From the IMG/VR virus record IMGVR_UViG_3300034064_001073, positions 15,874-79,873 of that record: 64,000 bases of DNA; one strand, written 5' to 3'. Positions 50,956 to 62,829 of the stretch are shown here, one piece after another. The notes under the pieces are model-generated. The model did not search any database. It was not told the DNA's origin and saw only the letters and a program-made list of their open reading frames with translations. The stretch comes from a virus. Both the position numbers and the translations under genes were made by a program. Positions within the stretch are counted from its first letter, which is position 1, and every line of letters starts with the position of its first letter.

Positions 50956-51762
50956 ATGAAGATCGACCGCGAAGATAAGTTCATGTTCTCTATCATTATG
51001 GTACTTGTTACGTTCATTACGACACTGTTCATCTATTCGGTGAGTATCACTCGTGAACATGCGGCGGCTATGTATGAGAAAGAAGTCCGTCAGGCTGTCT
51101 GGGTAGCCGATAGCGACTATGCAGAGGTTGTGATGCAGTTGGAAGAGTACCTTGACGAAAAGTTTCATGCAGAAAACAATATCCACCATGGTATTGGCCC
51201 TGTTGCAACCAAAGGCGATAAGGGCCCTCTTGAGGACACTTGGGACTGTACCGCTTGGAAGTGGAAGGGTAAAGTCTATACGGCAGAACACTGTGTACGT
51301 GAAAACTACGAGGAAACTATGGGTGACGTAGTTGTATCGGCTGATAAGTACCCCCATGCCATCAAAGAGGATCTATATGACATCGGTATTGAATGTAGCA
51401 CGGATCTGCGCTGGTGGGGTGCGAATACGGACATGTGGGGCTACATTCCTTTTGAGCAGGCATTTAATCACTATAAGCAAGTAGTGAATGGTGCAACTGT
51501 TACTAATCAGCGCTTCATCTGTGCTGCTAGCATCAGCCTTGAGATTGCTCCTGTGGTTGGCGACTCTGGTGGCCCGCTTATGGCTGGTGATGAAGTCATT
51601 GGCTTCGTCAGCTATGGTGAGAGCCCGAAGTGGGCTGACAGTGATATGCTTGAGAACTTTGACATCAAATATAAGGACGCCCTATATGGTGACCTTACAT
51701 ATTGCTGGGGTGTACTGGATAGAAGCCAGGATACGATCAGCAAGTCGGAACAGTCCAACTAA
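50956..51762 (+). CDS. Membrane-anchored trypsin-like serine protease
   Basis: YTAEHCV (His), YDIGI (Asp) and GDSGGPL (Ser) triad motifs, plus an N-terminal TM helix. Start is uncertain (ORF is open from 50821). Confidence 0.85.
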   Translation: MKIDREDKFMFSIIMVLVTFITTLFIYSVSITREHAAAMYEKEVRQAVWVADSDYAEVVMQLEEYLDEKFHAENNIHHGIGPVATKGDKGPLEDTWDCTAWKWKGKVYTAEHCVRENYEETMGDVVVSADKYPHAIKEDLYDIGIECSTDLRWWGANTDMWGYIPFEQAFNHYKQVVNGATVTNQRFICAASISLEIAPVVGDSGGPLMAGDEVIGFVSYGESPKWADSDMLENFDIKYKDALYGDLTYCWGVLDRSQDTISKSEQSN

Positions 51763-54700
51763 TGCTTAATAACATGAAAAATAACATCAACATTAATAAG
51801 GTGAATCTCATGTACAAGTTTCTTGCTCTTGCTTTTGCCATCTTCTTCGCAGTGGAGTTTGCTATGTTTGATATTGTGGAAGTCATGAAGAATGTTCTCA
51901 TTGCCGTTGCCCTTGTTGCCACTGGTGCATTTGCTGCAATGCTAAAAAACAACATCGCCCTTACGGGCAAGGAGAATCCCGCCATGGGAATTGAGCGTTT
52001 GGCCTGTACGGCTCGCATCTTCGTTGCAAGCGTTATTGCAGCGATCTTCCCTGTCGTGACCGCTCAGCATGCGGTCGAAATCCACTTCATCTTCGGCTTT
52101 ATCAGGTCGATTGTGGAGAGTGTTGCTCTGCAGTCTAAGTCGTTCCGCGTTAAGATGGCAAAAGTCATCAAGGCTCGCGGTCGTCGTATGGCCAAGGCGA
52201 AAAACTGGACGGTCATCCGCTACCAGCGTTGGTTGGTAAAGTGGGGCATGGCCAATAAGGCAAAGAAGGCAAAGATGAAGAAGAGCAACAACAGCTTTGT
52301 TGTTAAGGTAAGCAAGATGTCACGTGAACAGCGCCGTCGCCTTGCTCACCAGTGGCGCAAGAAGGCAGGAATTAAGCACGTGAACAAGGTTGTCTTGCCA
52401 TCTGACAAGAAGGAGCCGATGTTCATCTACAGCGAGGGATCCAAGATTCCTGGTGGCCGTAAGAGCTCGCCGCCTGCCTTTATCCATGTGGCAACAACCA
52501 TTGCCGCACGCAAGCGCAACAACAACGGTGGAAAGAACGTGAAGACTGGTCCTGCGTTCAACACTCGTGCCAGGATTCTTGCACAGCTTGACCGCAAGAA
52601 GAACGAAAAGACTCGTCCTCAGAACGAGATCAAGGCGCGAATCGCTGCACGCAAAGCAGCTCGCCGCCACGTCAGGGCAAACAGCCCTATCTTGGCAATG
52701 ATTGCCGCAATCGCCATCACTGGCCGTGACTTGGCTGATTCCCTTATGGGGCAGTCGCTGACGGAACTTCTGCAGGGTGGGCCTGCATTTGTGATCTTCG
52801 GCATCATTGCCGTCATCTGTGGCCTTGCTCTTCTCAACTGGGCAAATCAGGAAGAGAAGAAGGGCGATAATGGCGACGAGACGGGCAAATTCCGCCTGTA
52901 CAGCGGTCCCTTTGTGGGCCAGGGAGAGAATATGGAAGACGACAATACCCAGACCGCCAAGGAGGTCAAGATGGGAATGATTGAGAACAGCAATAACGTG
53001 CTTCGGGCTATCCTCGAAAAGCTCACGGGGGTTGGCAATGAAATGACGTCTCCGATGGCTAAGAGCGACAGGGAGGTTAAGACTTATGGTCGTACCCTTG
53101 ATGCCCTTGGCTACGAGGAGACGGCTCTCACCATCCTCCATAAGGGTTTCCGTAAAATGGTCATTCGTGACCTGACGGACGACGATGTTCGTGCCCTGGA
53201 AGGTAAGTTCATCTGGAAGACCGAGAACTGCATGGTTATCGTCCGTGACAGCCAGCAATACGAGATGCCCAATGAGTGCTTTACTGCACTGATGAAGGCG
53301 GTCGTGGTTGCTGGTCAGGTCCCTGACAGCAAGAAGGTTGTAACCCTGCAAGAGGTCAACAAGTACATGGGCTCGCTCCTGTGGGCTCGTGCCTCGGTGG
53401 TCTCCATCAAGCTCAGCGAGATCCTTGTCATGAGCAAGGCAGTATCGGATCTCTACGACGGCACCGTCTACGTTTCGGCCACGTTTGCGGCTCAGGCTGG
53501 CTGGCAGGGTTACGCGATTCGTCGTATCCTCACGGCCAAGGGCTTGGTCAAGGGCATGGTTATCGTGCTCCCTGACACGTACTTCCCGGCCGGTATCAGC
53601 ATCATTGCGAGTGAGATCAAGCAGCACTTGTCTCTTCGCAACGATAACGGTAAGGCCATTGTCATGCAGCCTCAGGGCGATGGTCACAGTGGTTCGGCCC
53701 GTACACTCTCCATGCAGCTCTGGGCAATGATCATGGGTGTCTTTGTTGGCAGCAAGCGCTTCGATGCGTTCGCTAGCGACAGCTACAAGGATGCCATGAA
53801 CGGCTTGGACAAGGCCACGGAGAAGATGCTTGATCCTGCTGAAGAAGGCGAGGATGGCCGTGACAAGCTGCTGGCAGAGGCGGCACGTCAGCACGGGTTC
53901 AATCCCGTCGCGGCATTCCGCAGCTACGGCATGGCCCTTGCGCAGGGTCTCACCAAGGCCTTCAACCCGAAGAAGGTCAACCTTGCACCTAAGAGTGCTA
54001 ATGGCAAGGTCCTCGCTCCTGAAGGGTATCCCATGATGATCCCCTGGATGGCGCTTGCCGATGCATTCACTAATGCCAAGCAGGATGTACCCGCCTGGAT
54101 GGCAGAGAAGCTTGAGGTCGCTATCGTTATCGAGAAGGCCTTGATGAAGCGTGCGAATGGCGCTATTCCTGTACTTGTGAGCAATCTCAAGATGCTGGAT
54201 GCTGCCAAGGTCAACGGCATCCGTCAGTATGTCATTGCTGCGATTGCTACTCGTATCCCGACGGGTAAGACCTCGGGTATCGAAGTTCTCCTGTTCGACG
54301 CTGACGAGTTCGGCACCCGTCCTGTGGACATCGGACCTGGCCTTGTCGGTCGCAAGAGCAAGGATGTAGAGTTCTGGTTGTTCCCCAACCAGGAGACTCT
54401 TGCATTCAAAATGGCTTCGGAAGGCGGCGACGATGATGACCTTTACAAGTTTCTAACTGGCAAGCTCCTTGAGATTGCTCGTGACGGTCTTGTGTGGCGC
54501 GACAGCATCCTCGAAGAGACCTCTGAGTCAAAGGACAAGGAGACGAAGCTGCGTAATTTCCTCAAGAAGTTCGCAGCAGAGATGCGCATCGACAAGGGCA
54601 AGCTTACCGCCATGATGGACATGCCCTTCGCCAAGAAGTTCGCAGCTGGTAAAGTTATGGTCGGCTGGCCGTCGCTCCTCGGCGTCAAGAAGGTATCCGA

Positions 54701-57700
54701 TGGGTACCGCATTGAGATCGAGGAAGTCAACGAGGACGCTATCTTTATGACGGTCAACAGCCGTCAGGACATCGAAGCGCAGATGGACTTGTTTGCGAAG
54801 ACCATGGTGGCAAACAATGATAGCCCGTTCAGCGCGGCCATCGGTACGGTCGCGCAGTCTCACAAGTTCGCCTTGGGCATCTTGGCGGGTCACGTTGTGC
54901 TTCCTGAGCACATCCGTCACATTGCCAAGGACTGGGCGCTGTTCGTGGTCCGCACCATCCTGCTTTCTGACATGGTCGATGCCTGTAACAAGGGCAAAGG
55001 CTACAAGAAGGCTGCAGAGGCACTCCAGGAGCTCAATTGGGCCTGGGGCTGGCTCTGTTACCAGATTGCCAAGGTCGAGGACGCTAAGGTCGTATGCCCC
55101 AGCCAGTACCTGGTAAGCGTGCCTCCCATGGCTCGTGACCTGTTCAAGGCCCGTCATGCAGAGACCTATGAGCTGGATGGCAAGACCCGCAAGCCTGGTT
55201 CAATGCTTGCTAACTTGTTCAGCTACCATGAAAAGCTGGGCAATGCGGTAGAAGCTCTTGCTACCAGTCAGCATGACCGCATGGAGTTCGCAGCTACCGT
55301 GAGCGTAATGGCTGACGCAGTTTCGATCCCGATGGGTGGTGCTCCCTCTGCCCAGGCGTTCGTTGCTCCTATCTGGAAGAAGGTCTGGTCGGAGAGCGGT
55401 CGTCTCAAGACCTACCTTGATGGCCTTCAGTGGCTGTCTGAGCGGAAAGAAGAGGGCAATGATGACGTCAAGGCTAATCAGCGCTATATGGCTGAGCTCA
55501 ACGACATCACGGTGTGGGCGGCTCACGCGGAATTCGACATGACTGTCCTTGCTGCTCTTGTGGACGCCAATCCCAAGGCAAGCAAGGCTGAGATCGAGGC
55601 TATGTTCAAGATCGCCAAGCTTGCCATGATTTACGTCAATGGCTTCAAGGCGCTGCACGTACCAGACAACAGCATCAAGATCATCATGGACAAGGACGGC
55701 AAGTTCGTGGCCTCGGGTGGTGTTGCTGGCTACCTTCTTCCGACCTGTGGCTCAAGCAGCTGTGTCGGCAAGGATGGAGAGGCGGAGTTTGTGGGTGGCA
55801 GTGAGATCCTCATCGAGTGGATGATGGATCCTGCGGTCATTGCTGCAGTCGCCGCACGCAAGGCTGTTGATGGCGACTTCAAGTTCGTGACCTTTGTCAT
55901 GAAGACGGATGCCTTCGGTGATGTAGTCAACGGTAAGCGTCCTCTCCTTTACACGGAAGACGACTTCACTGGTAAGACCGTCATGGAGATTCTCGGGATG
56001 CCTGGTGTCTACTTGGCTGGCAATACCGATGATGAGGCTCACGAGATGCAGAGCACGTTCCTTGCTGGCATCGCAGACGATGTCAAGAAGAAGCGCAAGG
56101 ACACGCTTGTTGCAATGAAGCGCGCGATTGCCGACGCCAAGGCCCGTGCTGCAGAGGCTAAGACGCAGAACAAGCATAAGCTTTATGCTCAGCTTATGCA
56201 GCAGGCCGCAGAGGCTCAGGACAAGCTGACCGCCTTTGCCGCGAGCTCGTTCGCAGAGCTTCTTGGCGCATTCAAGATCCGCAGCGTCGAGGAGAATGTC
56301 AAGGGCACTGCAGTTGTCGAGACCATCGACACCTTCCTCTGGCAGGACGCTAAGAAGCAGGCGTATGCTCAGTACCACAACACCTTTGTTATCGTCAAGT
56401 TCGAGTCTGACTCGGATCCTGAGGGTGACAAGGTTGAGGTTGTTGCTCCTGTTGAGGTTGTCGCAGCTCCTGTGGTGCCTGCTGTTGTGGCTCCTATTGT
56501 GGCTCCTGTTCAGAAAGATAAGGGTGATCTTCTTGGTCGGCTTAACCGCATTCATAATGTCAAGGAGCCTGCTGTTGTGGCAACTCCTGCCGTGACTCCC
56601 GTTTACCGGATCGCTTTCACGGGTCACCGCCCTGAGAAGATTGGTGGCTACGATGAGAGCAGCCCGATGCGCGTCGCTGTGAAGAACGCCATTGCAGATG
56701 CATTGAAGCGTGCAATTGCTAAGCATGGCGAATCCAAGGAGATCATCGTCGTTACGGGCGGTGCCCTCGGTGTAGATACTGATGCAGCCCGTGAAGCGTA
56801 CAAGCTTGGTCTTAAGTTCATCGTGGCGCGTCCTTGCAGTGACCACGGTGAAAACTTCAAGGCTGACGCTAAGGTTGCCTATCAAAAGATGCTCAAGATT
56901 GCTCATAAGGTTGTTCTCGTCAATGAGCAGCCGTACGACTTGGCAGGCAAAGCAGACTGTCTCCATGCCCGCAACCGCTGGATGGTCGACAACTGTGACG
57001 CTGTCGTTGCTATCTGGGACGGCTCTCCTAGCGGCACTTCGAACTGCGTTGCCTATGCAAAGAAGGCCAATCGTCCAATGATCATCATCAACCCGAATGA
57101 TCTAATGGGCAACGAACCTACTCCTCCTAGTGATCCTAAGCCTGCTCCTGAGACTGCTCCTAGTGTGAGATCAACAACGCTTGGTCTTCCTAATCGTCTT
57201 GCAGATCAGGTTGAAGTTGAAGCCAAACTCGGACTTCCTGAGGATGGTCGTAGCTTTACTGGAGAAATCCAGACACCAAACGGAAATACGATTGCAAGCA
57301 AATATACCCGCATTGTGTACGGCGACCATGGTCCCTACATCGAGCTCGATGCTGCTAGTGTTGACCTTAGCAAATGGCAGATCCGTCAGAAAGGTTCTCA
57401 GGCTTGGTATGACGAAGCCCGGCTTGATGGAGTAATGCTGTACATTCAAAATCGGGATGTCAGCACCCTCCCGAATCCTCCTGCGGGCGCAAAGTCTACG
57501 CGCAACAACCGCCCCGAAGGGTATGCAGACTATCAGCCAGGAATGCTGTACGTTGATCCCTTTAAGGTCAAGATTGTTCCTGCTGCTACTGTATCAGAGG
57601 TTCCTGCTGTGAAGAATGAACGCAAGGACTATCCCATCAGCGGTCATACCTACCGTGAGATCTTCCAGGAAAATGGCAAATATAGTGCTGAACTTGCAGA

Positions 57701-58292
57701 GAAGTTCTTCGACCTTGATTACGTCCTCGATCTGCGGCGCGAACCTCAGAACCAGCATGACAACAATGCGATTGCCCTGTATGCTCAAAGGGACAAAGTC
57801 GGATACGTGCCTAAGGATCTTGCAAAAATGCTTGCCCCCATGATAGATGCTAATCCTAGACAGAAGTACAACTTCCAAGCAGTAGTCACTGGTTGGGATT
57901 CTGGCTATCCTCGTTTTGCCTTGGAATTTGTAACCGTTCATCAGGGTCGTAAAGGAAAAGAAGATGGCCGCCAGTACCAGTACTGGGCAGTTGACAAGAA
58001 TGAAGCAAAAGACTACGGCTCCTTTGTTGACACAGCAATCGTCTCCCTCTCGACTATGATCTCCACCAAGGAAAATCCTGCGCGTTGGGACGAAATGAAG
58101 ACTCAGTACTCTAAGGTATCTGGCTACTGGTTTGACCTCTGCGATGGAGATACGGAAAGCCACAATAAGTTCTTTGCTTGGTTGGAAAACCAGGGACTCA
58201 CTGGTATCAACTTCCTTGGCGGCGAAGATAACAAGTATGTCGTCACCTTTGGAACTAAGGTGATTATGTCGCGCAAGAGCAATGTAGGCTAA
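51762..58292 (+). CDS. 2176-aa YonO/cellular-RdRP-like single-subunit RNA polymerase fused to SLOG (YspA/DUF1273-like), an unknown domain and HIRAN
   Basis: YDGTVYVS...R...KGLVKGMV...SEIK fits barrel 1 and ATRIP...LFP...ASEGGDDDDLY fits barrel 2. IAFTGHRP...TGGALGVD...RNRWMVD...WDGSPSGT is SLOG. LRREPQNQHDNNAIAL...VGYVP is HIRAN. There is a strong internal GGAGG-ATG at 52961-52973. Confidence 0.75.
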   Translation: MLNNMKNNININKVNLMYKFLALAFAIFFAVEFAMFDIVEVMKNVLIAVALVATGAFAAMLKNNIALTGKENPAMGIERLACTARIFVASVIAAIFPVVTAQHAVEIHFIFGFIRSIVESVALQSKSFRVKMAKVIKARGRRMAKAKNWTVIRYQRWLVKWGMANKAKKAKMKKSNNSFVVKVSKMSREQRRRLAHQWRKKAGIKHVNKVVLPSDKKEPMFIYSEGSKIPGGRKSSPPAFIHVATTIAARKRNNNGGKNVKTGPAFNTRARILAQLDRKKNEKTRPQNEIKARIAARKAARRHVRANSPILAMIAAIAITGRDLADSLMGQSLTELLQGGPAFVIFGIIAVICGLALLNWANQEEKKGDNGDETGKFRLYSGPFVGQGENMEDDNTQTAKEVKMGMIENSNNVLRAILEKLTGVGNEMTSPMAKSDREVKTYGRTLDALGYEETALTILHKGFRKMVIRDLTDDDVRALEGKFIWKTENCMVIVRDSQQYEMPNECFTALMKAVVVAGQVPDSKKVVTLQEVNKYMGSLLWARASVVSIKLSEILVMSKAVSDLYDGTVYVSATFAAQAGWQGYAIRRILTAKGLVKGMVIVLPDTYFPAGISIIASEIKQHLSLRNDNGKAIVMQPQGDGHSGSARTLSMQLWAMIMGVFVGSKRFDAFASDSYKDAMNGLDKATEKMLDPAEEGEDGRDKLLAEAARQHGFNPVAAFRSYGMALAQGLTKAFNPKKVNLAPKSANGKVLAPEGYPMMIPWMALADAFTNAKQDVPAWMAEKLEVAIVIEKALMKRANGAIPVLVSNLKMLDAAKVNGIRQYVIAAIATRIPTGKTSGIEVLLFDADEFGTRPVDIGPGLVGRKSKDVEFWLFPNQETLAFKMASEGGDDDDLYKFLTGKLLEIARDGLVWRDSILEETSESKDKETKLRNFLKKFAAEMRIDKGKLTAMMDMPFAKKFAAGKVMVGWPSLLGVKKVSDGYRIEIEEVNEDAIFMTVNSRQDIEAQMDLFAKTMVANNDSPFSAAIGTVAQSHKFALGILAGHVVLPEHIRHIAKDWALFVVRTILLSDMVDACNKGKGYKKAAEALQELNWAWGWLCYQIAKVEDAKVVCPSQYLVSVPPMARDLFKARHAETYELDGKTRKPGSMLANLFSYHEKLGNAVEALATSQHDRMEFAATVSVMADAVSIPMGGAPSAQAFVAPIWKKVWSESGRLKTYLDGLQWLSERKEEGNDDVKANQRYMAELNDITVWAAHAEFDMTVLAALVDANPKASKAEIEAMFKIAKLAMIYVNGFKALHVPDNSIKIIMDKDGKFVASGGVAGYLLPTCGSSSCVGKDGEAEFVGGSEILIEWMMDPAVIAAVAARKAVDGDFKFVTFVMKTDAFGDVVNGKRPLLYTEDDFTGKTVMEILGMPGVYLAGNTDDEAHEMQSTFLAGIADDVKKKRKDTLVAMKRAIADAKARAAEAKTQNKHKLYAQLMQQAAEAQDKLTAFAASSFAELLGAFKIRSVEENVKGTAVVETIDTFLWQDAKKQAYAQYHNTFVIVKFESDSDPEGDKVEVVAPVEVVAAPVVPAVVAPIVAPVQKDKGDLLGRLNRIHNVKEPAVVATPAVTPVYRIAFTGHRPEKIGGYDESSPMRVAVKNAIADALKRAIAKHGESKEIIVVTGGALGVDTDAAREAYKLGLKFIVARPCSDHGENFKADAKVAYQKMLKIAHKVVLVNEQPYDLAGKADCLHARNRWMVDNCDAVVAIWDGSPSGTSNCVAYAKKANRPMIIINPNDLMGNEPTPPSDPKPAPETAPSVRSTTLGLPNRLADQVEVEAKLGLPEDGRSFTGEIQTPNGNTIASKYTRIVYGDHGPYIELDAASVDLSKWQIRQKGSQAWYDEARLDGVMLYIQNRDVSTLPNPPAGAKSTRNNRPEGYADYQPGMLYVDPFKVKIVPAATVSEVPAVKNERKDYPISGHTYREIFQENGKYSAELAEKFFDLDYVLDLRREPQNQHDNNAIALYAQRDKVGYVPKDLAKMLAPMIDANPRQKYNFQAVVTGWDSGYPRFALEFVTVHQGRKGKEDGRQYQYWAVDKNEAKDYGSFVDTAIVSLSTMISTKENPARWDEMKTQYSKVSGYWFDLCDGDTESHNKFFAWLENQGLTGINFLGGEDNKYVVTFGTKVIMSRKSNVG

Positions 58293-58490: not shown

Positions 58491-58673
58491 ATGGTCAATC
58501 CCGTTTTTGATGTCCTTACGAAGCCCCAACTCCTTGCGCTGCGGGCGATGCTCGTACACCAGGCCAGCCTCGACGAACTTGAGACCGCGGCCTACATCGA
58601 GACCTGCAAGACCCTCGTCGCAGAGATCGATGAGATGATGGAGCATGCCGAGATGTACTGCTCTGAAGTCTAA
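58491..58673 (+). CDS. Small early hypothetical protein
   Basis: Between promoter copy 1 and a terminator; codon usage like its neighbours. Start is 58482 or 58491. Confidence 0.6.
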   Translation: MVNPVFDVLTKPQLLALRAMLVHQASLDELETAAYIETCKTLVAEIDEMMEHAEMYCSEV

Positions 58674-58685
58674 CGCATCCTCTCA

Positions 58686-58717
58686 ACCCTCGGCTTCGGC
58701 TGGGGGTTTCGCTTTCT
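58686..58717 (+). terminator. Intrinsic terminator
   Basis: ACCCTCGGC-TTCG-GCTGGGGGT followed by a T-rich tail. Confidence 0.8.
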
Positions 58718-58915
58718 CACTCCGCTCCCCGGCCACAAGGCTCCAGCTGCAGCAGCCCTTCGGGAACCAGGCTCCGCTTCACAGTGGGGTAACTCCAGCA
58801 ACCAGGCCCTTCGGCCGCGACAAGGACCGTCAGCAGAGGGAAAAGAGGCCGGACTCCGCTGAATAACCAGATGGCTTGTGGCAACTAGGGGTCTTACGAG
58901 GCTCCTTCGTCGCCC

Positions 58916-59157
58916 AAAGCAGCGGATGGTGGCTGCCGCTACCCGTATCAGAGAAGGCCTGTCGGTCTCTGGTATGTATCAGACAGGGGCGGTTCCCAGT
59001 CCGCTTAACACAAAAACTGGCTGTCATCCCTTTAGGATGGCATGTTAATAAACGTCCCCTCTTGGACGTGTTCCTGGTAGTGGTAGTCCTACCTACTGCG
59101 TACCAGGATAGAGAGGTAAAGCCCCAGCACGGTAGGACGTGTTGGGGTTTTATTTTT
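58916..59157 (+). ncRNA. Structured multi-pseudoknot ncRNA, copy A
   Basis: Promoter-to-terminator unit with no credible ORF. Hairpin-loop CCTGTC pairs with GACAGG, CCAGT with ACTGG, and GTCCTAC with the terminator loop GTAGGAC. Homologous to copies B and C. Confidence 0.7.
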
Positions 59158-59221
59158 CTCACTCCGCTCAATAACCAGATGGCTCATACAACCAGGGGTC
59201 TAACGAGCTCCTTCGTCGCTT

Positions 59222-59555
59222 AAGTACGTGAGGTAGTTGCGCACCTCTTAGACATGCTCACAACCCTGGGTGAGCGTGAGGAGCCTAGCGAGGCAGGCAC
59301 AGAGGGAGAGTAGACTGGGCTCAATCCACCAGTAGATGCCACACCAATAGTTGTCGGGCATCAAAGCACTAGAAAGGGCCTGTCGGGTTCTAGTGTACAG
59401 TAGACAGGTGCGGTTGCCAATTCCGCATTACGATTTGGATAAGCCTCCTCTTAGGCTGATAGACTCGTAACTAGTAGTGACCCTGCTAGTGTCCTAATAC
59501 GAGATAGAGAAGTAGAGCCCCTGACACAGTAGGACGTGTTGGGGGTTTTATTTTT
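59222..59555 (+). ncRNA. Structured multi-pseudoknot ncRNA, copy B
   Basis: Same core as A with different stem sequences, an extra 5' domain of about 140 nt, and a near-identical terminator. Confidence 0.7.
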
Positions 59556-59623
59556 GTTACTCCGCTATATAACTAGATTACTAGTAAGTGTATAGTGGTT
59601 TGTTAGGGGCTCCTTCGTCGCCC

Positions 59624-59773
59624 AAAGCACTGGGCGTTGACGCTCTGCCATCTCCGTTGGTAGAGACTAGTTCTAATAGACGGGGAGTCCCAAGTCGTCC
59701 TTACGGGCTTGGATAAGACTATCAACAGAAGGACAGATTCCCACTACTAGGCCGGTAGTGGGTTTCTTTTTTT
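59624..59773 (+). ncRNA. Short pseudoknot ncRNA, copy C
   Basis: CTCTGCCA/TGGTAGAG stem whose loop TCTCCGT pairs with ACGGGGA; CCAAGT pairs with GCTTGG. Shares TTACG...TTGGATAAG with B and ends in the terminator CCCACTAC/GTAGTGGG plus a T-run. Confidence 0.6.
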
Positions 59774-59835
59774 GGCCTCCTTCGTCGGCCAGAGAACATG
59801 AGGCACTTTCGCCTCTTGGTCCATTGGAGGACAGC

Positions 59836-60048
59836 ATGAAAGCAGGCAAGTATCACTCCTACGACTGGCGCACAGAGCGGGATGCGGATGCTAATAGGAG
59901 CGTCTTCAGGGCCGCATGGAAGGCAAAGTTCCCTGGGGTCGTGCCGCAGTTCGCCATCATCTTGGATGACGGCAGTTGCCACTGGTGGAACGAGTGGCCG
60001 GATGGGCGGACTCGCCGCCTCCCGCCCGGCACATTCAACATCGAGTAA
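59836..60048 (+). CDS. Small early hypothetical protein
   Basis: GGAGG SD and ATG at 59836; lies between promoter copy 5 and the terminator at 60055-60087. Confidence 0.7.
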   Translation: MKAGKYHSYDWRTERDADANRSVFRAAWKAKFPGVVPQFAIILDDGSCHWWNEWPDGRTRRLPPGTFNIE

Positions 60049-60283
60049 AGATAGACCCCCTGACTTCGGTTGGGGGTTTTTCTTTTCTCACTCCGCTATA
60101 GACCTACAAGGCTCCAGCTCTCAGGCTCTTCGACGGTCGGCAGGTAGGAACCCAACAGCAAAAAGAGGCGAAAATATAGACTCCGCTATGGACCGGAAAG
60201 ACTTTCATCAACTAGTAGTGTAACGGCCTCCTTCGTCGGTTAGGTATGATGAGGTAATGTTGCCTCTGCATTGGAGAATGAAC

Positions 60284-60466
60284 ATGGATAGCGTTTTCTT
60301 TCTTGACAGCCTGAACAACGTATGGCAGACCTGTGGCGCTGACGATAACGATGCTGTGGCATTCGGGCCGAGGGGTTGCGCACGCCGCGTGCCTGCCGCC
60401 TGCTACAACGTTTACCAGAACGACGAGATCGAGGCTGGATGGCAGCTCATCGAGATCACTGGCTAA
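60284..60466 (+). CDS. Small early hypothetical protein
   Basis: GGAG SD; lies between promoter copy 6 and the terminator at 60473-60506. Confidence 0.65.
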   Translation: MDSVFFLDSLNNVWQTCGADDNDAVAFGPRGCARRVPAACYNVYQNDEIEAGWQLIEITG

Positions 60467-60613
60467 TGTGTGACCCTCTGGCTTCGGTCGGAGGGTTTCG
60501 CTTTTCTCGGCTCCGATGACCGGACGGATGGTTCCAGCTCCCAGTAGTCTTACGAGCCTCCTTCGTCGGCCAGAGCATCGGGCAATTGCGCCCCTATTTG
60601 ACTGGAGAATGTC

Positions 60614-61036
60614 ATGAACAGTGTGAACATGGTTGGCCTCCTTACGGCCAGTTCGAAGGTTGAGGGTGACTTTCTCTTCATCGTCCTGGACAACCAGGGC
60701 GAGATGCCGACTCTCGGTTTCAAGGGTAAGCAGAGAGAGGCGGTCGAGAAGTGGGGTGAGCCCAAGCGCATGGTGTCGGTGTCGGGCGCATTGCGTACCG
60801 TCATCAACGGCAACCAGAAGATGACCTTCGTGGATGTCGCCTATAGTCGCTTCCTTGACAGCCAGAAGAAGGTTGTTGAGGAAACGAAGGTTGCGGCCCC
60901 AGCAAAGGTTGCGGCCCCTGCGAAGGTTGCTGCTCCTGCGAAGGCTCCTGCAAAGGCTCCTCCGAAGGTCTCTGCAAAGGCTCCTGCCAAGGCTCCTGCG
61001 ACGGCTGCTCCAGTCGACAACGACGTGCCCTGGTAG
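60614..61036 (+). CDS. ssb: Single-stranded DNA-binding protein with an APAK-repeat linker
   Basis: MNSVNMVGLLT...VSVSGALRT...RFLDS fits the SSB OB fold; acidic-aromatic tail DNDVPW (compare DDIPF). Has its own promoter copy and terminator (61044-61078). Confidence 0.8.
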   Translation: MNSVNMVGLLTASSKVEGDFLFIVLDNQGEMPTLGFKGKQREAVEKWGEPKRMVSVSGALRTVINGNQKMTFVDVAYSRFLDSQKKVVEETKVAAPAKVAAPAKVAAPAKAPAKAPPKVSAKAPAKAPATAAPVDNDVPW

Positions 61037-61279
61037 ACTCGTGACCCTCTGGCTTCGGTCGGAGGGTCTTGCTTTTTGGGCTCCGCTCCCCGGCCACAAG
61101 GCTAGACCTACAACAGCCCTTCAGGAACAAGGCTCCGCTATAGACCTACAAAGTTCCAGCTCCCGTGGCTCTTCGGTCTGCGGAGGACCCGTCAGCAGAG
61201 AAAAAAGTGGCGAAAAATATAGGACCTCCTTCGTCGGTTAGGTTTTGTGAGGAATAGTCCTCGGAGTTTGGAGTATGTC

Positions 61280-61529: not shown

Positions 61530-61959
61530 ACATTTATTGGGTTTTGACACTGGTCAGGCCAAAGATTTAAGGCGTCGAGTAGGTTACATTGCGAACTCTA
61601 GGGGATGTAAACCCTATTGCTCGTACTGCAAGACGTCACCTTCTAATCCTCTAGAAAAATCATAAGCGCGCCTACCGCTTATGGGAACCTAGAGGTGTCA
61701 GGGTTGCAAACCTGGCTATAAAGATAGGCTGGCTGCTAGTGGATCCCTGCCACTAGTGGACAAGATGAACATGGGGCTTTGTCTACTAGGTAGGACCCCT
61801 GCCGCTAGTAGCAAGATAGACATGGGGTGGTTACTAGTTCGCTAGTAACGACTGGGAAGGGGTTCGCACGCTAGCAAATAAGACGACCCGTACCCTTTTG
61901 ATTAGTCTGGTGACGCAACGGACCACACGCGGCTATGGGTTCGATTCCCATATGATTGA
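61530..61959 (+). ncRNA. About 430-nt structured RNA with a tandem pseudoknot repeat and a 3' tRNA-like element
   Basis: No ORF; dense inverted repeats; duplicated unit at 61733-61776 and 61783-61827; T-arm TATGGG-TTCGATT-CCCATA at 61934-61952. Confidence 0.6.
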
Positions 61960-61988
61960 ATTACTTTACCCGTCCTAAGGAGGACACA

Positions 61989-62447
61989 ATGAACATGAAT
62001 GAGCGTCTTGAAGATTTCGTAGAGAAGATGGGAATGCGATTGGGGTTCTTGTGGGATACTACTGCCAGCTTGACCTGGAGTGGTAACTTTGGGCCGACTG
62101 TCGAGAGGGTAGAGAAGGAAGGTGAGACGATGATGGGCGATTTCTACCTGACCAATGGATTGCTGCACAGCGATCACTGCGGACACAAGGCGACGTTCAC
62201 CATCAGTGTCCCCGGCCAGCACCCAGATGGGTTCATCATGAACTGGCTGAAGATCGAGATCACGAACCTTGACTGGAATGGCGACGGCATCACGCACGAT
62301 GATCCGACTTACTCCCTGCCTGAGTTGAGTTCCAAGTACAACAAGATGGAGTTCAGGGAGGGCTTGAAGTTGGCGGAAACGTCTGCTCAGATTATCGTGG
62401 ACTTTGAAATGGTCTTGGAGGATGTCAAGGCCTCCTTCGTCGGTTAG
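61989..62447 (+). CDS. Early hypothetical protein
   Basis: AAGGAGG SD and ATG at 61989. Promoter copy 10 overlaps its last codons. Confidence 0.75.
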   Translation: MNMNERLEDFVEKMGMRLGFLWDTTASLTWSGNFGPTVERVEKEGETMMGDFYLTNGLLHSDHCGHKATFTISVPGQHPDGFIMNWLKIEITNLDWNGDGITHDDPTYSLPELSSKYNKMEFREGLKLAETSAQIIVDFEMVLEDVKASFVG

Positions 62448-62580
62448 GTATCGTGACTAGTAGGTCAACAGTCTGCAACCTGCCTGTCGGTAGGATAACC
62501 TATCAGATGTCATGTCTGGTAGCCACAAAGGCTGAATCACTTCCTTATGGTACAAAACTGGTTCGAATCCAGTTAGGAAG
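62446..62580 (+). ncRNA. Structured leader ending in a minimal tRNA-like element
   Basis: Several hairpins, then CTTCCT...AACTGG-TTCGAAT-CCAGTT-AGGAAG at 62540-62580. Confidence 0.5.
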
Positions 62581-62607
62581 ACTTTACCCCCTTATATAGG
62601 TGACAAG

Positions 62608-62811: not shown

Positions 62812-62829
62812 CGTCCTTAGGAGGACAAC

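Follow-up and report, generated by a model that had tools for sequence, protein, structure and literature searches.

Strings of H-type pseudoknots are found in transfer-messenger RNA (tmRNA) and in the upstream domain of the tobamovirus 3′ untranslated region. DsrA and RprA act on rpoS as anti-antisense activating small RNAs, and CsrB and RsmZ are protein-titrating RNAs. In phages, pseudo-ToxI of phage phiTE is a pseudoknotted RNA mimic of a type III antitoxin (PMC3475682), and the crAss-like phage phi14:2 produces abundant, intergenic early long non-coding RNAs (ncRNAs) of unknown function that are present from the first time point and persist at high levels (bioRxiv 10.1101/2020.03.07.982082). 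Phage phi14:2 transcribes its early genes with a giant polymerase of its own, and its early transcripts lack a common upstream motif (bioRxiv 10.1101/2020.03.07.982082). Here, a stretch of 64,000 nucleotides (the window) from an uncultured lake phage of ~174 kb was analysed, comprising bases 15874–79873 of a 79.9 kb IMG/VR virus record with an estimated completeness of 46%. Three candidate RNA genes, A, B and C, lie in the variable early region, directly 3′ of a giant gene with the putative label of a polymerase. We conclude that A and B are, with high probability, paralogous genes of one uncatalogued ncRNA family and that both the family and its fold exist.

The pair of early ncRNAs of phi14:2, compared by description, may be the closest biological precedent. 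Both sets of RNAs are intergenic and belong to the early region of a phage with a giant polymerase, which is putative here. In contrast to phi14:2, the A, B and C units have a strong shared upstream motif. With tmRNA and the tobamovirus domain, the locus shares abutting H-type pseudoknots, and related modules in the phage clade stand 5′ of tRNA-like elements; however, A, B and C contain neither a tRNA-like domain nor a tag open reading frame (ORF). GOLLD and ROOL (Rfam) and the viral candidates of a catalogue (PMC10690425) are likewise structured phage or metagenome RNAs without an assigned function, some with terminators, but A, B and C differ from GOLLD and ROOL in lacking any Rfam match.

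A and B have a common architecture, which is well supported by comparison of the sequences: a 5′ hairpin and pseudoknot rod are followed by a 3′ half, which holds the CCUCUU hairpin and a GUCCUA element with complementarity to the loop of the terminator. In A, the 5′ half is a hairpin and then a rod of two directly abutting H-type pseudoknots, of which some relatives have three. The two RNAs were linked by nhmmer (E ~1e-14), with 76% identity over a 49-nt core and 87% identity over the 30-nt terminator. A covariance model (R1) scored 100 bits on A and 83 bits on B, and a second model built from six A-type cores (R2) aligned B correctly with 49 bits. The fold energies, calculated on single strands, were lower than those of dinucleotide shuffles for A (z = -7.1), B (z = -3.9) and C (z = -2.5). 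Direct reading located all the pairings that the original prediction had listed for A and B (Table 1), including, for B, GCACTAGAA/TTCTAGTGT, CCTGTC:GACAGG, CCAA:TTGG, AGCCT-CCTCTT-AGGCT and GTCCTA:TAGGAC.

The view of A and B as covarying pseudoknotted RNAs was borne out by pair counts. In the R2 alignment of 9 distinct rows, to which both pseudoknot helices were added by hand and outside the model, 95.7% of the cells were standard pairs, compared to 34–44% with the partners slid by 1–3 columns; the rows are few and closely related, and the columns of P1 and P2 had been part of the model fit. Seven pairs had changed on both sides, namely six of the nine P1 pairs and one pair of pseudoknot 2 (PK2; G:C to A:U in B). 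A further PK2 pair, formed by the third base of the loop and the base that follows ACUGG, was C:G in both L008 and L033 but G:C in both L010 and L030. The CCUGUC:GACAGG helix of pseudoknot 1 (PK1) was without variation in the 9 aligned rows. Two metagenome fragments (L032 and L033) have an added upstream module of like design, PK0, with the stem ACUAGG/CCUAGU and the loop CCCAUC complementary to GAUGGG downstream, which differs from CCUGUC:GACAGG by two compensatory pairs. Since G:U pairs occur in several stems, the structures fit an RNA of the plus strand.

In the 3′ half of A, GUCCUAC (59086–92) is complementary to the terminator loop GUAGGAC (59132–38). The UCCUAC:GUAGGA complementarity is retained in both paralogues, although the P4 element is placed differently (apical loop, A; internal loop, B). 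In G001, C59138 has changed to U jointly with G59086 to A, which preserves the seventh loop-to-loop pair. These observations support a contact between the P4 element and the terminator loop in A and B, short of proof. The CCUCUU loop is invariant across all full-length copies, while its stem differs between A and B, and a tertiary pairing with the conserved AGAGAGG linker would be possible (6 bp in A, 4 bp in B). Both genes end in intrinsic terminators with 9–10 bp GC-rich stems and a U-tract (A, 59122–47 and UUUUAUUUUU; B, 59518–45 and UUUUAUUUUU). The modules of the B 5′ extension also head a different RNA in G001 (the unit at L010 8892) and occur in G002; the CUCAC/GUGAG stem of the extension is replaced by UUCC/GGAG in these counterparts.

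Two other structures were considered and rejected. In the non-pseudoknotted minimum-energy fold of A, positions 58921–38 are paired with the P2 region. A G-to-A change in L008 breaks this pairing, B keeps P2 and PK2 without the 5′ segment, and in L032 and L033 its two strands are separated by PK0. Dimerisation via a palindromic 10-mer in P0 was dropped, since a hairpin with a compensatory change explains the sequence equally well.

Table 1. Coordinates of RNAs A, B and C, of the stem-loops in front of them and of the candidate target hairpins (positions in the window).
Feature	Coordinates	Strand	Elements and observations
RNA A, entire unit to U-tract	58915..59157	+	Fold z = -7.1; 94%-like homologue in complete genome G001; conserved ORF absent
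A, P0 hairpin	58928..58943	+	GGUGGC-UGCC-GCUACC; L008 has AGUAGC/GCUACU (G:C to A:U, G:U to A:U)
A, pseudoknot 1	58946..58987	+	P1 58946-54/58966-74; loop CCUGUC 58958-63 : GACAGG 58982-87
A, pseudoknot 2	58989..59020	+	GCGG 58989-92/CCGC 59001-04; loop CCAGU 58996-59000 : ACUGG 59016-20; A-rich linker
A, hairpins	59023..59069	+	P3a 59023-29/59035-41; P3b ACGUCC/GGACGU 59052-57/59064-69, loop CCUCUU 59058-63
A, P4 hairpin	59073..59107	+	Loop UCCUAC 59087-92; closing pair G59086:C59093, A:U in G001
A, 3′ end	59108..59157	+	Conserved AUAGAGAGGUAAAG linker; terminator 59122-30/59139-47; loop GGUAGGAC 59131-38; U-tract
RNA B, entire unit	59221-59555	+	Fold z = -3.9; homologous to A
B, 5′ extension	59221..59362	+	Leader hairpin; hairpin 59253-59278; GAGCCUAG motif; hairpin GAUGCC/GGCAUC
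B, pseudoknot 1	59366..59438 (core)	+	P1 59366-74/59388-96; CCUGUC 59379-84 : GACAGG 59403-08
B, pseudoknot 2	59366..59438 (core)	+	GCGG 59410-13/CCGC 59423-26; CCAA 59417-20 : UUGG 59435-38
B, 3′ domain	59442..59555	+	P3 59442-46/59453-57, loop CCUCUU; P4 59464-77/59483-90/59498-503, GUCCUA 59491-96
B, 3′ end	within 59442..59555	+	Linker; terminator 59518-27/59536-45, loop AGUAGGAC
RNA C	59624..59772	+	Nested stem 59651-58/59679-86; hairpin 59690-96/59706-12; terminator 59740-62
Start-signal stem-loop, unit A	58900..58914	+	GGC-TCCTTCGTC-GCC; CTCCTTCGTCG copy count and flank covariation
Start-signal stem-loop, unit B	59206..59220	+	AGC-TCCTTCGTC-GCT; motif count and flank covariation
Start-signal stem-loop, unit C	59607..59623	+	GGGC-TCCTTCGTC-GCCC; motif count and flank covariation
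Hairpin at ribosome-binding site, gene 61989-62447	61972..61985	+	GUCCU-AAGG-AGGAC; candidate target of A/B loop UAGGAC
Hairpin at ribosome-binding site, next gene (~62829)	62813..62826	+	GUCCU-UAGG-AGGAC; candidate target of C AAGGAC

The original prediction had grouped A, B and C as three copies of one family. A and B are homologous, but neither nhmmer nor either covariance model linked C to them. C had also been said to share the first two pairings of A and B; its first element proved to be a nested stem enclosing a small hairpin and not a pseudoknot, and after the second hairpin that follows, there is one candidate pseudoknot in all, between the hairpin loop GUCCUU (59697–702) and AAGGAC (59729–34), 27 nt downstream. 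On these comparisons, C is a distinct RNA family of similar design, and the locus holds two families rather than one. A homologue of C in G001 is 94% identical, and in L011 and L025 C-like modules directly precede a tRNA-like element. The stem of the second hairpin has an A:U to G:C change in L011. Counterparts of the loop pairing were seen as GCUUUC:GAAAGU in L011, in a shifted register, and as UUUCU:AGAGG in L025, which is only suggestive of a conserved pairing between the C loop and its downstream partner.

The novelty of the RNAs with respect to Rfam was upheld. No family of Rfam 15 matched anywhere in the window at the gathering threshold, and the matches at E up to 10 were noise (the top one, NsiR1, scored 27.6 bits, below its threshold of 39, and lay on the terminator). 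A blastn search with 58650–60300 gave no matches among cultured phage records. The A/B family therefore appears to be uncatalogued, as it is absent from Rfam; it was set beside the 10,006-candidate catalogue (PMC10690425) by description. No tmRNA genes were called by ARAGORN in the window, and neither a T-arm nor an acceptor stem is present in A, B or C. A and B also do not resemble a leader of the T4 gene 32 type, as they terminate ~1.1–1.5 kb 5′ of the SSB-like gene at 60614.

The structural genes of the phage, including those for the portal and the major head protein (PHROGs), are on the minus strand. The closest cultured relatives are jumbo myoviruses, with a portal identity of merely 29–32%. 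A trypsin-like gene and the gene for a 2176-aa protein (51762–58292) follow on the plus strand from ~50.8 kb; in the 2176-aa protein, SLOG (YpsA-like) and HIRAN, near the C-terminus, were the only domains found with Pfam. The first 1600 aa of this polymerase-like protein had no matches among PDB sequences, and a tblastn search with the protein against cultured phage records had none. From 58.3 kb, the plus strand is a series of short units, each headed by a stem-loop with the loop TCCTTCGTC. The motif CTCCTTCGTCG has 10 copies, all on the plus strand between 58435 and 62442, compared to 0.46 expected, and the flanking 3–4 bp of the start stem-loops covary between copies. Most early units end with a hairpin and a T-run. 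The evidence for separate transcription of A, B and C is the start stem-loop in front of each and the terminator behind it, which suggests three transcripts. Small ORFs equipped with a leader hairpin and the ribosome-binding site (RBS) GGAG are present in some early units but not in A, B and C. The early mRNA leaders at 59790–59835, 60245–60283, 60570–60613 and 61240–61279 consist of the start stem-loop, a GAGG...CCUC-type hairpin with a covarying stem, UGGAG and ATG; RNA B opens with this leader hairpin (59229–59247) without an ORF.

An additional box, ACTCCGCT, has 8 copies between 58362 and 61483 in the window, compared to 1.2 expected, and often lies ~47 nt 5′ of the stem-loop, with spacings from 11 to ~47 nt. 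Together with the related boxes GCTCCAGC and GCTCCGCT, it forms arrays 5′ of the stem-loops in the same interval. The box is kept in G001, G002 and G003 despite their differing stem-loops. The start stem-loop itself is phage-specific: GGCC-TCCT(T/G)CGTC-GGCC in the window and G001, AGGC-TCGCTGCGCTC-GCCT in G002, GGGGC-TATC-GCCCC followed by T-runs in G003 and G004, and GACCGCC-TTCG-GCGGTC in L030 (minus strand). In relatives it was located at 2155–2175 and 2621–2641 of L008 and at ~6965, 7045 and 7650 of L025. Three start motifs of the window have the outer stem GGCC/GGTT, so that the plus strand has G:T pairs where the template strand has A:C mismatches. Because the G:T pairs form on the plus strand only, a hairpin of the plus strand or of the RNA is favoured over one of the template strand.

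The distribution of the A/B core was determined among close relatives with major head proteins 87–95% identical. Pattern scans and model R1 detected the core in G001, G002 and three metagenome fragments (L030, L032 and L033). Chance matches were removed from the motif scans: 4 of the 8 viral matches, in coding DNA (L005, L006, L007 and L009), 6 of the 11 metagenome matches and all 4 matches in prokaryote genomes, again in coding DNA. A scan with the terminator motif added one chance match, L041. The complete genome G001 (174,107 bp; loci L010, L003, L027 and L034) has one A and one C copy, and in G002 (145.9 kb; L004 and L008) the 5′ half of A is fused to a B copy. Overall, G000, G001, G002 and a G001-like fragment carry the core; three of the five large related genomes have it, and the complete genomes G003 and G007 lack it, as do eight partial records. 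By this distribution, the A/B core is an accessory, shuffled element of the variable early region.

Modules with a PK1-related hairpin and a downstream partner, with covariation between CCCC:GGGG and GCCC:GGGC, occur in the non-coding stretch 61530–61960, which is longer in G002 and G003. This large ncRNA (~430 nt in the window; L008 2900–3425; ~900 nt in G003; L025 7890–8780) contains repeated hairpin and CAUGGGG/CAUGGGC modules, is matched weakly by model R1 at 61782–61858 and has a tRNA-like element as its 3′ end. The tRNA-like elements (~61898–61960, ~62520–62590 and L011 7968–8030) combine an acceptor stem with a D-like arm and a canonical T-arm but lack an anticodon arm; they sit at junctions of RNA and mRNA and were not called by ARAGORN. 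The acceptor stem of the L011 element is a perfect 7-bp helix, and the copy at 61898–61960 would have a G3:U70-type wobble. A second tRNA-like element ends a conserved non-coding unit with CCTGCCTGTYGGTAGG (62450–62590; L011 8800–8940; L010 11340–11470). Another conserved RNA module (L010 8892–9170; L025 7940–8060) has a CAUGUGC...GCACAUG hairpin with CCUAAGGAGG in its loop, and is probably structural rather than coding because the short ORF that follows varies in length. In L030 (3677–4102, minus strand), a string of three pseudoknots without the 3′ domain lies directly 5′ of a gene with weak similarity (E 3e-4) to the OB-fold/SSB-like gene at 60614–61033 of the window, from which a start hairpin separates it.

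The functional evidence from this analysis pointed solely to a connection with RBSs sequestered in hairpins. Regarding the function of the RNAs, we tentatively propose that A, B and C control the translation of early genes with hairpin RBSs, a mechanism that may apply but in which our confidence is limited. The palindromic RBS GUCCU-WAGG-AGGAC has half of its Shine-Dalgarno sequence locked in a 5-bp stem. The 14-mer GTCCTWAGGAGGAC occurs twice in G000, three times in G001 and once in G002, in each case in the early region, on the sense strand and 3–5 nt 5′ of an ATG. It was found in none of seven related records without the A/B core (2 complete genomes; 4 covering the homologous early region), so that RNA and hairpin co-occur in 3/3 versus 0/7 records, for a match of 6–7 nt among records that are related. 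The A/B terminator loop UAGGAC is complementary to GUCCUA (W = A), and AAGGAC of C is complementary to GUCCUU (W = U). G002, with B and without C, has the W = A hairpin only, and G000 and G001, where C is present, also have the W = U hairpin. The internal partners, GUCCUA in A and B and GUCCUU in C, are exact copies of the matching RBS arm. Of a pair of homologous genes in G001 and L011, only the one in G001 has the hairpin RBS.

According to the proposed mechanism, compact knotting at both ends would make the RNAs long-lived, and the GUCCUA/UAGGAC pair (GUCCUU/AAGGAC in C) would mirror both arms of the Shine-Dalgarno-sequestering hairpin. UAGGAC or AAGGAC would pair with the 5′ arm of that hairpin and free the Shine-Dalgarno sequence, and the RNAs would thereby tune the translation of the one to three hairpin-locked genes a few kb downstream. 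Alternatively, the RNAs might titrate a factor that recognises the RBS helix. The first route resembles DsrA and RprA, in that a stable RNA pairs with a 5′ arm and frees a hairpin-sequestered Shine-Dalgarno sequence, but the seed in A, B and C is just 6–7 nt and is predicted to be paired internally. The second route resembles CsrB and RsmZ in soaking up a hairpin-binding factor, but A, B and C have a single motif pair compared to many GGA loops.

Several observations weigh against this mechanism. The complementarity to the RBS arm is just 6–7 nt and includes a G:U pair in G001 and G002. The internal partner stayed Watson-Crick in these two genomes, which indicates that selection acts on the internal pairing. 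By prediction, intramolecular pairing already engages the loops of A, B and C, and the co-occurrence comes from 10 related, mosaic records that are not phylogenetically independent. Additionally, the double-pseudoknot 5′ half and the CCUCUU loop are given no role except stability, and L030 and G002 contain a pseudoknot string without the 3′ domain.

A possible but rather unlikely alternative is that the pseudoknot string is a decoy or sponge neutralising a host RNA-binding protein during takeover (candidates being RNase E, a global regulator and a defence endoribonuclease such as a type III toxin), with the modules shuffled in an arms race. The location in the early region is consistent with this explanation, as are the accessory nature of the core, which three of the five large genomes have and G003 and G007 do not, and the duplication, fusion and movement of modules (PK0, the half-A fused to B, the RNA at 61530–61960 and L025). 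The loop and linker sequences are invariant while the stems vary, and pseudo-ToxI of phage phiTE provides a precedent (PMC3475682). As in ToxI and phiTE, the ncRNA would be phage-encoded and pseudoknotted, with several modules whose number differs between relatives, and each unit is a pseudoknot, here of the H-type with covariation support. In contrast to ToxI, in which tandem near-identical repeats of ~36 nt (34–36) are cut by the toxin, the A/B modules differ in sequence. No tandem repeats were found in 58900–59800 with TRF, and the sole direct repeats in the A–C region are the A/B paralogy and the start and terminator motifs. The ToxI-like nature raised in the original prediction is thus not sustained, as tandem direct repeats, similarity to ToxI and any match to an Rfam family are all absent. 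A decoy would also leave the co-occurrence with the RBS hairpins unexplained.

It is improbable that the pseudoknot strings and knotted 3′ ends are cis elements that stabilise or insulate early transcripts or serve as their processing signals, and not trans-acting RNAs. Such a role would suit the string in L030, which has no 3′ domain or U-tract terminator and is followed by a second start hairpin and the weak homologue of 60614–61033. It would also suit the C-like modules of L011 and L025, within a long leader 5′ of a tRNA-like element and an mRNA, and the terminator of C, to which the next start motif is directly joined without a ACTCCGCT box. However, A and B in the window end in strong terminators (9–10 bp stems and U-tracts), with no ORF inside the unit.

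We consider it very unlikely that the CCUCUU loop, similar in sequence to the anti-Shine-Dalgarno end of 16S rRNA, acts by base pairing and blocks RBSs of the AAGAGG/GGAGG type in mRNAs of the host or the phage. The loop is constant in A, B and all full-length homologues on differing stems, but it can pair internally with the AGAGAGG linker; a specific target was not found, and AAGAGG-type RBSs were seen in relatives without A/B.

Still less credible are multimers formed by GUCCUAC:GUAGGAC pairing between molecules, or a ribozyme or ligand sensor. The same complementary loops are kept in both paralogues, so that pairing in trans would be possible, and RNA-only multimers are reported for GOLLD, ROOL and OLE (bioRxiv 10.1101/2024.12.08.627333), but A, B and C are far smaller than known cage-forming RNAs. 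Among Rfam models, no ribozyme or riboswitch matched even at E up to 10, and there is no downstream gene within the unit. Short protein-coding genes or DNA-level signals can practically be dismissed: the 40-codon ATG ORF across the A 5′ half has 36, 24 and 0 codons in homologues, with the ATG lost in L008, no Shine-Dalgarno sequence precedes any frame in the A/B homologues, in which ORFs vary in length and presence, and the stem substitutions are compensatory, with G:U pairs making the stems strand-specific.

On a broader and speculative view, which we regard as improbable in its entirety, the early region would be an RNA toolkit, in which interchangeable pseudoknot, kissing-loop and tRNA-like modules are assembled in several abundant first-wave RNAs. 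A, B and C would then be specificity-coded riboregulators that switch on hairpin-locked genes as the RNAs accumulate, forming an RNA-only early-to-middle timer, while the knotted 5′ rods might also occupy a host nuclease or defence protein.

Early regions of phages are usually read as lists of small proteins. In this phage, a substantial part of the early region appears to encode modular RNAs, and such elaborate early RNAs are gained, lost, fused and duplicated among related phages. If expressed and functional, A and B would represent a new RNA family with several stacked pseudoknots that is absent from Rfam. If the proposed control of phage translation or of a host factor is true, it would be a testable, RNA-based regulation in a phage with putative transcription machinery of its own, for which the matched RBS hairpins offer a direct handle for a reporter assay.

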